Shown: positions 39,367-45,800 of the stretch, piece after piece
How the letters are laid out: each line of letters starts with the position of its first letter
Numbering within the stretch: position 1 is the stretch's first letter
Source: Burkholderiales bacterium
GTDB taxonomy: Bacteria > Pseudomonadota > Gammaproteobacteria > Burkholderiales > SG8-41
NCBI GenBank assembly: GCA_050741255.1
Contig: JBOIEQ010000001.1
Span: 9,473-73,472 of the forward strand
DNA: 64,000 nucleotides
Direction: 5' to 3'
Translations under genes and position numbers: made by a program
The notes under the pieces: generated by a model
Databases searched by the model: none
Told to the model about the DNA's origin: nothing
The model's input: only the letters and a program-made list of their open reading frames with translations

Positions 39367-40068
39367 TTAGGCTTTTTCCAGCTTCAGCCACACGCACTTG
39401 CCCTTGCTCGCCTTGTCGAGCTCGGCCAGGTATTGCGCGTGCGCCGCGAGTTCTTCCGCATCGGCCGCCAGCGCCAGCACTTCCGCCATGCCGCCCGCCA
39501 CTGCCGCGAGCCCGTCCGCCGCGGTGGGCGCCACGTCCATGATCAGGCTGTTCTGGCCGCGCGTCATCGCCAGGTAGACCTCGGCGAGCAGCTCGGCGTC
39601 GAGCAGCGCCCCGTGGAGCGTCCGCGACGAATGGTCGATCTGGTAGCGCTCGCACAGCGCGTCGAGCGAGTTGCGCTTGCCGGGATGCAGATCGCGCGCC
39701 ATGCGCAGCGTGTCGATCACGACCGGGCAATGGTGCGCGAGCGGTTTGCGCTTCAACAGCGCGAACTCGCGGTCGAGGAAGCCCACGTCGAAGGGCGCGT
39801 TGTGGATGATGAGCTCGGCGCCCGTGATGAAGGCCAGCAGTTCGTCCGCGATGTCCTTGAACTTCGGCTTGTCGGCGAGCATCTCGTCGGTCAGCCCGTG
39901 CACCTGCTGCGCGCCGGCGTCGATCGCCCGCTCCGGATTGACGTAGCGCTGGAAGGTGTTGCCCGTCAGCCGGCGGTCGGCGAGTTCCAGCGCGGCGACC
40001 TCGATCACGCGGTGGCCGAGCGCCGGATCGAGGCCGGTGGTTTCGGTGTCGAGAATGATCTGCCGCAT
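39367..40068 (-). CDS. dnaQ: DNA polymerase III subunit epsilon
   Basis: MRQIILDTETTGL (ExoI), HNAPFDVGFL (ExoII), HGALLDAELLAEVY (ExoIII). Confidence 0.9.
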   Translation of the reverse strand: MRQIILDTETTGLDPALGHRVIEVAALELADRRLTGNTFQRYVNPERAIDAGAQQVHGLTDEMLADKPKFKDIADELLAFITGAELIIHNAPFDVGFLDREFALLKRKPLAHHCPVVIDTLRMARDLHPGKRNSLDALCERYQIDHSSRTLHGALLDAELLAEVYLAMTRGQNSLIMDVAPTAADGLAAVAGGMAEVLALAADAEELAAHAQYLAELDKASKGKCVWLKLEKA

Positions 40069-40074
40069 TTTTCC

Positions 40075-40154
40075 GTGAGGGGAGAGGGGTGAGGAGTGAG
40101 GGGGGAACCCCGCACTCCGCATTTACCCCTCTCCCCTCACCCCTTTCCCCTCAC
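40075..40154. repeat. REP family B copy (GTGAGGG/GAGAGGG heptad palindrome) between dnaQ and rnhA, overlapping the rnhA 3' end
   Basis: GTGAGGGGAGAGGGGTGAGGAGTGAGG (40075..40101) faces CCCCTCTCCCCTCAC-CCCTTTCCCCTCAC (40126..40154). The left arm is the exact reverse complement of 44798..44824. Confidence 0.6.
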
Positions 40155-40593
40155 TGGCCATCAAGGCCACGCCACGATTGGCCAATTCATCCGCCCGCTC
40201 GTTTTCGGGGTGTCCGTCGTGCCCCCGGACCCACAGCCATTCCACGCTGTGCTGCGCGGCGAGTTCGTCGAGCCGCCGCCACAGGTCCTCGTTCTTGACC
40301 GGCTTCTTGTCGGCGGTCTTCCAGCCGCGGCGCTTCCAGGCGTGGATCCACTCGCTGATGCCGAGTTGGACGTACTGCGAGTCGGTGTAGAGCCGCACCT
40401 GCGAGCGCGCCGTCAGCGCCGTCAGCGCCTCGATCACGGCGGTCAGCTCCATGCGGTTGTTCGTGGTGTGCGCTTCGCCGCCGAACAATTCGCGCTCGCG
40501 CGCGCCGCACCTCAGCAGCACGCCCCAACCGCCGATACCCGGGTTCCCCTTGCAGGCCCCGTCGGTATAGGCCTCCACGAGCGGCTCGCTCAT
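40123..40593 (-). CDS. rnhA: ribonuclease HI
   Basis: [22 protein letters not shown]...[15 protein letters not shown]...YTDSQYV...[18 protein letters not shown]. The last 11 residues ([11 protein letters not shown]) are encoded by the REP-B element. Confidence 0.9.
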
Positions 40594-43751: not shown

Positions 43752-45800
43752 TCAGTCCTGCAGGTACAGATGGCAATCGGCGCGATGCGTCGCGCTGAAC
43801 GGCGCCGTCCGCGGCCAGCGCTCCGCGCATTGCGGCAGCGCCTGCGGACAGCGCGGATGGAAATGACAGCCCGCCGGCGGATGAACCGGTGACGGCAGGT
43901 CCCCCGGCAGCCTGATCACCGGCCGCCGCGCCGCGCCCTCCGCCGGCAGTTGCGGCACCGCCGACAACAGCGCCTGGGTATAGGGGTGGCGCGGCCGTCC
44001 CAGCACCTCCTCCGCACTGCCGGACTCGACGATACGGCCGAGGTACATCACCGCCACGTCGTGCGCGAGATACTCCACCACCGCCAGGTTGTGCGTGATG
44101 AAGAGGTAGGCGAGTCCGCGGCGCTCCTGCAGGCCTTTCAGCAGGTTCAGTATCTGCGCCTGCACCGAGACGTCGAGCGCGCTGGTCGGCTCGTCGCACA
44201 CCAGCAACTGCGGCTCGACGGCGAGCGCGCGCGCGATGGCGATGCGCTGCCGCTGGCCACCCGAGAATTCGTGCGGGTAGCGGTACTTGGTGTCCGCGCC
44301 GAGGCCCACTTCCTCGAGCAAGCGGTCGACACGCGCCTGGCGATCGGCGTCCGAGCTCCCCACGCCCAGCGCCCGCATGCCTTCGGCGATGATCTCCGCC
44401 ACGCGCATGCGCGGATTCAGCGACGCGTACGGATCCTGAAACACGATCTGCGCTGCCCGCCGCCGCCCGCGCAGTTGGCGCAGCGAGAGCCGTGTCCAGT
44501 CCTCGCCCGCCAGCAGCACCCGCCCGCCGGTCGGCTCGACCAGTCGCAGCAGTCCCTTGCCCACGGTCGTCTTCCCGCAACCCGATTCGCCGACCAGCGC
44601 GAGCGTGCGTCCCGCGGCCAGCGTGAGCGAGATGCCGTCCACCGCGCGCACGTGCGCAACCGCGCGTCGCAACAGGCCTTTGCGGATGGGGAAATGGACT
44701 TGCAGGTCTTCGACCGTGAGGAGTGAGGAGTGAGGGGTGAGGGGAAAAGCCGGCGAAGACGCGGCGGCATCGGTCGTGGCAGGAGCCACGGTTTCCACCT
44801 CACTCCTCACCCCTCTCCCCTCACCGTGTTCGCCACTGGCGAACAGATGACACCTTGCCTCGCTGCCGGCCGGGGTTGCGTACATCGGTGGCGCTTCCGT
44901 CCGGCAGCGCGCCCACGCAAAATCACAGCGGTCGGCGAACCGACAGCCGGTGAAGGCATGCGTCAGCGGCGGCACGCTGCCGCGGATAACCTGGAGGGGC
45001 GCGCCCCGGCGTACGCCCGCCGGCAGCGAGGCAAAGAGCTTGCGCGAGTAGGGGTGCGAAGGCGAGCGGAAGAACGCGTCGCGTGCGGCGACCTCCACCA
45101 GTTCCCCGGCGTACATCACGCCGACCCGGTGCGCGGTTTCGGCCACCACTGCGAGGTCGTGCGTGATCAGCAGCATTGCGAGCCCGCGCGCGCGCTGCAG
45201 TTCGCGCAGCAGTTCGAGGATCTGCGCCTGGATCGTGACATCGAGTGCGGTCGTCGGCTCGTCCGCGACCAGCAGCGCCGGGTCGCAGGCGAGCGCGATG
45301 GCGATCATCACGCGCTGCTTGAGACCGCCGGAGAGCTCGAAAGGATAGGCGCCGAGCCGCCGGCGCGCCTCCGGAATGCGCACCGCGTCCAGCAGCTCCA
45401 GCACGCGGGCGTCGAGCGCGGAACCGGCAAGCGCCGTGTGCCTCGCCAGCACTTCGGCGATCTGCGCGCCGACGGTCATGACCGGGTTCAGGCTCGCGGC
45501 GGGCTCCTGAAAGATCATCGCCACCTGGCGGCCACGCACGGTGCGCATCGCCGCTTCCGGCAGCGCCAGCAGGTCCGTGCCGTCGAATTCAATGCGCCCC
45601 GCGGCGACGTGCGCCGCGTCCGGCAGCAGCCGCAGGATGGACAGCGCCGTCATCGATTTCCCGCAACCCGATTCCCCGAGCAGCGCGAAAGTTTCCCCGC
45701 GCGCGATCTCGAAGGAGATGCCGTCCACGGCCGTCACCAGCGCTTCGCCGGTGTCGATGCACGTGGTGAGACCCGATACCCGGAGCAGCGGCGCGCTCAT
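43752..45800 (-). CDS. fused double-ATPase ABC transporter protein (YejF-like, DppD/DppF-type halves)
   Basis: Two Walker A sites ([16 protein letters not shown]), two LSGG signatures ([16 protein letters not shown]) and two C-terminal oligopeptide-type Cys motifs. The Arg-rich 164-aa track extension is rejected. ATGA overlap with the permease gene. Confidence 0.9.
44716..44824. repeat. REP family B copy located inside the ABC ATPase coding sequence (inter-domain linker)
   Basis: GTGAGGAGTGAGGAGTGAGGGGTGAGGGG (44716..44744) and CCTCACTCCTCACCCCTCTCCCCTCAC (44798..44824) form an inverted repeat. Translated on the minus strand as [13 protein letters not shown]...[12 protein letters not shown]. 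Confidence 0.6.

Follow-up and report, generated by a model that had tools for sequence, protein, structure and literature searches.

Heptamer repeats are abundant in many bacterial phyla. The closest described systems are the G-rich repeats of Xanthomonas, GGGAATC or (GGGANTN)n, and of Nostoc, GGGGAYT (STRR-type), which prefer arrays of four units, form 70-75 convergent inverted pairs per genome, lie near stop codons and are intragenic in 7-11% of cases; arrays of 14-26 units were also reported, and a G-quadruplex was proposed for the Xanthomonas GGGAATC repeat (Rehm et al. 2015, PMC4692102). The Rickettsia palindromic elements (RPEs), as summarized in PMC10969869, are palindromes of ~100-150 bp that lie in frame in unrelated genes and are translated where the fold tolerates them. 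In Escherichia coli, an intrastrand triplex motif (TM) has the form CCCTCTCCC...GGGAGAGGG...GGGTGAGGG (Holder et al. 2015, PMC4666352). Here we describe two heptamer-armed hairpins in a 64,000-nt stretch of DNA from a Burkholderiales bacterium (the window, C1:9473-73472), which belongs to a metagenome-assembled genome (MAG) of 4.47 Mb in 273 contigs with 66.8% G+C, labeled G000 and referred to below as the source genome. One hairpin (44716-44824) is read in frame between the two domains of a fused ABC ATPase, and the other (40075-40154) lies at the junction of rnhA and dnaQ. We consider it probable that repeats of this kind occupy DNA under low constraint, where they turn over locally, and that the ATPase copy is translated as a tether that existed before the repeat.

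The ATPase open reading frame (ORF; 43752..45800, minus strand) encodes 682 residues plus a stop, from a conserved start, MSAPLL (45800), to the stop at 43752. Translation, Pfam, NCBIfam and AlphaFold2 describe a fused double ABC ATPase of the Dpp/Opp family, composed of a DppD-like half, a linker and a DppF-like half. Two ABC_tran and two oligo_HPY Pfam matches flank the element on either side; NF008453 scored above its cut-off, and YejF and GsiA scored below their equivalog cut-offs, so that the protein is predicted to be a fused YejF/GsiA-like member of the Dpp/Opp ATPase subfamily. On the plus strand, positions 44716-44743 read GTGAGGA, GTGAGGA, GTGAGGG and GTGAGGG, and are followed by a 53-nt loop and four NCCTCAC units at 44797-44824. 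In the mRNA, which is read from the minus strand, the G-rich arm comes first (44797..44824; GTGAGGG, GAGAGGG, GTGAGGA and GTGAGGT, encoding about residues 326-335), then the loop (44744..44796; about residues 335-353), which is unique in sequence apart from beginning GGAAA and ending TTTCC as in the family consensus, and then the C-rich arm (44716..44743; four NCCTCAC units, residues 353-362). The frame is unbroken through the element, which corresponds to residues 326-362 and sits exactly in the inter-domain linker, as a preliminary description of this DNA had stated.

The structural prediction bears out the flexible linker proposed in that description. With a 28-sequence alignment as input, AlphaFold2 gave a mean predicted local distance difference test score (pLDDT) of 87 and a predicted template-modeling score of 0.85, and the sole segment with a pLDDT below 50 was residues 324-356. 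Strand 1 of the second ATPase domain begins at residue 359 of the model, and that start includes Leu360 and Leu361, the latter almost invariant, both of which are specified by the outermost C-rich heptads. Those two heptads are of the GTGAGGA type and are read as SSLLT, where PSPLT is commoner; the orthologue in related genome G010 has the identical 11-residue peptide at this point, encoded with five synonymous differences. At the nucleic acid level, the element folds with a predicted energy of -75.2 kcal/mol (z about -6 relative to shuffles). Rfam 15 yielded no match at the gathering score, only sub-threshold eukaryotic microRNA-precursor models, which are generic hairpins.

Orthologues of the ATPase were drawn from 20 related genomes and 80 named records, the related records being MAGs of uncultured Burkholderiales or Betaproteobacteria, and the linker could be delimited in 68 of them (G0xx denotes a related genome and L0xx an orthologue locus; g1 and g9 are genera). 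The linker measured 29-72 residues in all 68, and none was shorter than 29. Linkers without seven-nucleotide periodicity (n = 43) had a median length of 37 residues and a median fold z, against mononucleotide shuffles, of -0.36, compared with 42 residues and -3.3 for the heptad-periodic linkers (n = 21). The repeat-free linkers are thus equally long, and they are non-homologous. An empty site was found in none of the 68 orthologues; deleting residues 326-362 would leave ~8 residues between the domains, a spacing that no orthologue matches. Because no orthologue lacks the linker, and because the repeat-free linkers are just as long, the linker is ancestral, and the repeat occupies it or has overwritten it; it was not exapted to create it. 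These lengths contradict the earlier suggestion that an insertion had created the linker.

The site retains a repeat across considerable divergence, and the repeat itself changes. A heptad hairpin is present at the linker in at least 10 genera of the source organism's family, and the units differ: GTGAGGN in the source genome, GTGAGGC in G010 and G024, GATYGAG in G004 and G009, GATGAGC in G017, GAAGGCG paired with GAAGGAT across the two arms in G003 and G018, GGAAGGC with GTGACGG in G002, and GAGGACT in the source organism's same-genus sister (82% protein identity). Sister taxa have different units on a tree for which the linker was removed from the protein. Length also varies, as three proteins that are about 4% mutually diverged have linkers of 72, 45 and 58 residues. 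In genus g9, four species have 108-nt linkers that align without gaps, with units that, in one register, are 1-3 bases apart (GATGAGC, GAGGAGT/GAGGCGT and GAGGATY); for L015-L017, which align over the 108 nt without gaps, identity is 70% in the center of the linker and 59-63% in the arms. This homology of the loops is only suggestive of conversion of the arms in place. Taken as a series, the turnover points to local dynamics rather than to a one-off transposon insertion. A different repeat type was seen in the orthologous linker site of L011 (G015), where a linker of 51 residues holds a near-perfect, long, non-heptamer palindrome, GGAAAAATGGGGTCAGAGTCGA...TCGACTCTGACCCCATTTTTCC, whose end is also repeated directly.

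The units found in linkers are also abundant in the genomes that carry them. There are 112 matches to GTGAGGN in the source genome, 109 to GATYGAG in G004 and 106 to GAAGGNN in G018, and G003 and G010 are likewise rich genome-wide in their own linker unit. In other families of the order, these three units reach a handful of matches at most, with the exception of GAAGGNN in G027 (29). GATGAGN has 17 matches in a congener, whose rnhA-dnaQ element uses it. Genome-wide unit counts in genus g9 are low, so that a linker does not always carry a unit that is common in its genome.

A heptad-array detector run on the whole source assembly identified 123 GTGAGGN arms, compared with 1 in the reversed sequence that served as a control, which supplies the copy count that the preliminary description called for; most arms are at gene 3' ends, and about five loci carry arms in frame inside genes. 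Forty-one pairs lie within 200 nt, every one of them with the G-rich arm ahead of the C-rich arm and 0 in the opposite order. The arms are 28 nt, or four units, with the consensus (GTGAGGV)x4 followed by G(G/T)AAA, a degenerate fifth unit. T occurs at unit position 7 in none of units 1-3 and in 4/80 fourth units, and is never found directly ahead of an arm. Loops range from 13 to 87 nt and, by inspection, have no evident mutual similarity among the 41 paired elements. Period-7 arrays number 224 in the source genome, compared with five arrays for period 8 and five for period 9; by unit, about 93 of them are of the GTGAGGN type and about 77 of the GGGATTN type. The latter constitutes a second large family, GGGATT(C/G/T), whose unit is essentially that of Xanthomonas and Nostoc, and it is probably the 'family A' of the preliminary description. 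A third heptamer family, of the ACCCATT/GGGATGA type, comprises about 17 arrays.

Many contigs start or stop inside heptamer arrays (for example, C9:2-15, C85:1-20, C108:4-31, C125:12428-12448, C162:9282-9309, C226:7-20 and C256:7-41), indicating that the repeats break the assembly and that the true copy number exceeds our count. In an assembly of 273 contigs, several of which end in arrays, a misjoin or binning error induced by the repeats could in principle have made the in-frame element. We regard this as extremely improbable: the frame is unbroken, a single orthologous gene is homologous to both flanks, the synteny of the ATPase region with rnhA is kept in relatives, and more than 20 independent assemblies, most of them also MAGs, share this architecture. 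Assembly error at either locus is unlikely. An Opp-type permease gene lies directly upstream of the ATPase gene.

The preliminary description interpreted both copies as a repetitive extragenic palindrome (REP). A palindrome of the REP/REPIN type, or a miniature inverted-repeat transposable element (MITE), transposed whole into the ATPase gene and adding about 36 codons that were later tolerated or exapted, would account for several observations. The palindrome is dispersed, multi-copy and of MITE-like size; the genome has one Y1_Tnp gene; the rnhA-dnaQ element is extra DNA relative to the compact junctions of relatives; and some orthologue linkers reach 58-72 residues, as an insertion would give. 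The arms at the two loci are also nearly identical, as noted earlier (35 nt at 94% in a repeat search, the 28-nt arms differing at one position). We nonetheless judge such a transposition improbable. Loops are unrelated between copies, and the arms resemble nearly independent draws of unit variants, with 106 distinct 28-mers among 123. Target-site duplications were not found beyond chance, as direct repeats were absent from the flanks of 35 of 39 elements, just as in the shuffled control. The length of the ATPase element, 109 nt, is not divisible by 3, none of the orthologues shows an empty site and the repeat-free linkers are of the same length. A search for arms on the contig of the Y1_Tnp gene (PF01797 match, C102:13577-13903) found none. 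That gene is the sole Y1_Tnp (IS200/RAYT-type) match in the source genome; it has an internal TAA and may be broken.

The 27/27 identity of arms that had been put forward was rejected as a specific tie between the ATPase and rnhA loci: ~3% of the possible pairings of arms across the genome are equally close, with one difference or none, and the dnaQ-side arm has five neighbors at distance 1. With respect to REP, BIME and REPIN sequences generally, the likeness is that of short, dispersed extragenic palindromes, often just past stops between co-directional or convergent genes, and of possible mRNA 3' stem-loops. Unlike REP/REPIN elements mobilized by RAYT (Y1) proteins, the elements described here have tandem-heptamer arms rather than one imperfect palindrome, and have no conserved whole-element sequence. 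The hallmark of REP/REPIN elements, a RAYT gene flanked by its own REPs, has no counterpart in the source genome, the single PF01797 match being on a contig without arms. Similarly, inverted ends like those of MITEs are present, but target-site duplications and conserved interiors are not. The earlier interpretation was therefore correct in describing a repetitive, palindromic, in-frame element, and is not supported in assigning it to REPs or in having it inserted and exapted as a linker.

Selection on structure offers another explanation for a hairpin that persists at one site. At the domain boundary, an mRNA or DNA structure under selection could act as a translational pause for the folding of domain 1, or as a processing or stability element; the fold is strong, a hairpin stands at the linker in many genera despite the changes in unit, and sequence turnover with structure kept can look like structural selection. 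Several results make this explanation quite improbable. Outgroup linkers are unstructured, with the median z of -0.36 given above. The arms are decayed in L006, L008 and L010 and are of different unit types in L003 and L022, and in all five the gene is intact. The same repeats are found at scores of unrelated gene ends. Finally, the elements of the source genome lack arm-to-arm covariation: the two arms of an element differ at a mean of 5.05 positions, compared with 4.88 for random arms, and being no closer than random arms they also give no sign of recent copy-and-paste bursts. As regards G:U strand asymmetry, a potential mark of RNA-level selection, inspection shows that mismatches in the ATPase hairpin mix G.U, A.A, A.C and U.C, and that those in the GAAGGCG/GAAGGAT type are C.U and G.A, a pattern that points neither way. 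A hairpin as an ancestral feature of the linker was considered and rejected on the basis of the unstructured outgroup linkers.

The G-rich arms could also be functional G-quadruplex repeats, as proposed for Xanthomonas GGGAATC, with the four units providing four G-tracts. The strict preference for four units, shared with the repeats of Rehm et al. (2015; PMC4692102), would be explained in this way, and the rnhA-side arm does have four tracts of at least three G. Across the family, however, only 14 of the 123 arms have the canonical motif of four intact G3 tracts, and neither ATPase arm is among them, so that this reading was rejected for most arms; the quadruplex proposal itself concerns the Xanthomonas unit and does not extend to heptamer repeats at large. 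Further, the units GATYGAG, GAAGGCG and GATGAGC of relatives have no G-tracts, yet form arrays of about four to five units. As a general function of the arrays, a quadruplex is very unlikely.

The second copy in the window, on the minus strand, is at the boundary of rnhA and dnaQ. The rnhA gene (RNase HI, 156 residues; 40123..40593) has an RNase_H Pfam match that ends at residue 142, and its last 10-11 codons are the mRNA G-rich arm (40127..40154), in which the in-frame heptad is the GAAAGGG variant. A 24-nt loop (40103..40126) holds the rnhA stop TAA (40123-40125) near its start, and the C-rich arm (40075..40102) ends 6 nt ahead of the conserved dnaQ start, MRQIILDTETTG, with its ATG at 40066-40068. 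The dnaQ gene (DNA polymerase III epsilon; 39367..40068) has an ORF that is open back to an ATG at 40122 in the loop. The element folds with -63 kcal/mol (z about -6 relative to shuffles). In ~10 relatives, rnhA and dnaQ overlap or are 4-30 nt apart, without a repeat; in ~9 others, the gap holds hairpins of other units, such as GATGAGT in the congener and CACAGAG in G003 and G007. The tail of RNase HI beyond ...LANRGV varies in all relatives compared. We conclude from these comparisons that the rnhA-dnaQ element is genuinely extra DNA, and that the last 10-11 codons and the stop of rnhA are lineage-specific. The derivation of the rnhA tail and stop from the element, as originally described, is supported by the end of the Pfam domain and by the compact junctions of relatives. 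Lineage-specific insertion, which had been proposed for both loci, is consequently upheld for rnhA, with its ~10 compact junctions, and not for the ATPase, whose repeat-free orthologues have linkers with a median of 37 residues.

Further features of this junction concern how dnaQ is started. The rnhA stop is abutted by an ATG (40120-40122), giving TAAATG, which is in the dnaQ frame, and the ORF from this ATG crosses the loop and the C-rich arm before entering the conserved start, MRQIILDTETTG. Upstream of the conserved dnaQ ATG, which lies 6 nt past the arm, there is no more than a weak GGAA. The two genes overlap as TGATG in relatives. The whole rnhA-dnaQ element may thus be translated, half as the tail of RNase HI and half as a leader of DnaQ, in a manner that keeps stop-start coupling. 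In L110 (G027), the rnhA-dnaQ gap of ~285 nt contains ~six tandem copies of the octamer GACACGAA and a short partner in inverted orientation, a counterpart of the heptamer hairpins with a unit of 8 nt.

We surveyed stop codons for the 75 arms in the source genome that face a converging ORF with high G+C at third codon positions. The stop falls in heptad 1 for 25 arms, in heptad 2 for 12 and in heptad 3 for 4; it is at the start of the loop in one case (rnhA), and one gene (the ATPase) reads through. For 19 arms, the stop is within 12 nt ahead of the arm, and for 13 it is further upstream. Thus 43 of the 75 genes that meet an arm terminate past the first base of the arm, the repeat unit's own TGA provides 38 of the 41 in-arm stops, and in 61 of 75 cases the stop is in the arm, at the start of the loop or no more than 12 nt ahead of the arm. 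The rnhA gene is the extreme of this general pattern of stop donation. A skew was apparent among in-arm stops, with 25, 12 and 4 in units 1-3 compared with the equal thirds expected, suggesting that elements tend to begin exactly at a stop codon (xxG TGA GG). For annotation, these counts carry a warning: since 43 of 75 genes end past the first base of an arm, 38 of them on a repeat TGA, C-terminal tails, and likewise inter-domain linkers, can be repeat-encoded and lineage-specific.

The same stop codons constrain which arms can be read through. The C-rich arm is stop-free in all frames. The G-rich arm has one TGA per unit, falling in each frame in turn; at the position where an in-frame TGA would otherwise occur, the ATPase has the TGA-less unit GAGAGGG, and orthologues have GTCAGGC, GTCGGTC or GCCAGGC. 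As 31 of the 123 family arms are stop-free in the frame that the ATPase uses, this amounts to a filter of about one in four, not to a special adaptation. The in-frame single arms in other genes of the source genome are all read on the C-rich strand, giving ...PLTPH.... These include a 1929-residue double UvrA (C53:10784-16570), in which two full UvrA-like proteins are fused head to tail, with four ABC domains; it has single GTGAGGN arms in frame at residues 918-927 and 1031-1040, one between an ABC signature and Walker B and the other at the junction of the UvrA halves. In Mfd, one arm is in frame just before domain D3, and in a GlcF-like protein, one is in frame just upstream of the second CCG domain. 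The ATPase linker is the sole complete hairpin inside an ORF in the source genome.

We propose the following account, which is the reading we consider probable. Each element consists of two convergent arrays of four GTGAGGN units round a unique loop, and such repeats would accumulate where sequence constraint is low; most copies are at gene 3' ends, where many donate the stop, and a few are in disordered loops and inter-domain linkers. The ATPase repeat sits in a linker of 30-45 residues that is older than the repeat, and its peptide would serve as a tether only. The linker site would have held repeats of this type since before the divergence of the family's genera, with arms that turn over rapidly, such that the unit changes between sister species and length and frame are kept. 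We infer that the arms turn over through slippage, concerted evolution or conversion acting locally on the arrays, that selection on frame, on stops and on the length of the linker filters the outcome, and that the hairpin itself is neutral.

Five points weigh against this account or temper it. More than 90 arrays share GTGAGGN in the source genome, for which pure local slippage cannot account, and some spreading or homogenizing process is needed. The uncorrelated arms of single elements argue against hairpin-templated correction as the means by which both arms usually retain one unit type. An insertion followed by a compensating deletion of the older linker could have led to the present length, and linkers of 58-72 residues do exist. 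Persistence in many genera could reflect a selected RNA or DNA structure. Lastly, that the element is translated is deduced from the unbroken frame and from domain 2 being required.

Conceivably, the arms are actively written or replaced by a sequence-generating process, with permissive sites being rewritten in each lineage with the genome's own unit and selection keeping frame and length; we think this unlikely. At a break or stalled fork, such a process might add G-rich 7-nt units, from a template, to both 3' ends; alternatively, it might convert arms from the genome's pool of units. Addition at two 3' ends would produce the observed order of G-rich arm, filler and C-rich arm. Were active writing to prove correct, the ATPase linker would be a natural reporter locus for a new bacterial DNA transaction.

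Whichever process operates, the linker offers constraints that are measurable (frame, no stops and a minimum length) and that can be tracked over dozens of orthologues. What is new here is a well-sampled orthologous series in which the site persists and its units turn over under constraint on frame and length, together with the statistic on stop-codon donation. Persistence, unit change and independent arms restrict models for the origin of these repeats, and would favor local turnover or conversion over transposition.

We compared the elements with (i) the TM motif, (ii) the RPEs and (iii) the heptamer repeats described by Rehm et al. (2015). TM has the words GGGAGAGGG and GGGTGAGGG in common with the arms and is also a dispersed intergenic repeat, but it has three 9-nt blocks in ~35 nt total and neither four-unit arrays nor a long hairpin; the resemblance is one of sequence words only. 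With the RPEs, the ATPase copy shares a translated, in-frame palindrome at a site that the fold tolerates. An RPE, however, is conserved from end to end, specifies a peptide typical of its family and represents inserted DNA when orthologues are compared; the elements described here have nothing but their arms in common, with a loop unique to each, and the ATPase has no empty site. Insertion of the RPE kind is seen at rnhA-dnaQ and not at the ATPase.

The heptamer class of Rehm et al. (2015) is the one that the GTGAGGN family matches, as judged from its sequence features, and it is an already described class. Shared features are the 7-nt unit, the four-unit arrays, the convergent stem-loop pairs, the mostly intergenic position near stops with an intragenic minority, and units that vary at defined positions; moreover, the source genome also has the about 77 GGGATTN arrays, essentially the Xanthomonas/Nostoc unit. 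The family differs from the described members in its unit, GTGAGGV, in that nearly all arms have four units, with no arrays of 14-26 units, and in that only 11% of the arms in the source genome could form a canonical quadruplex. It also differs in that a full inverted pair is here read as protein, at an orthologous site that carries other units in sister taxa.

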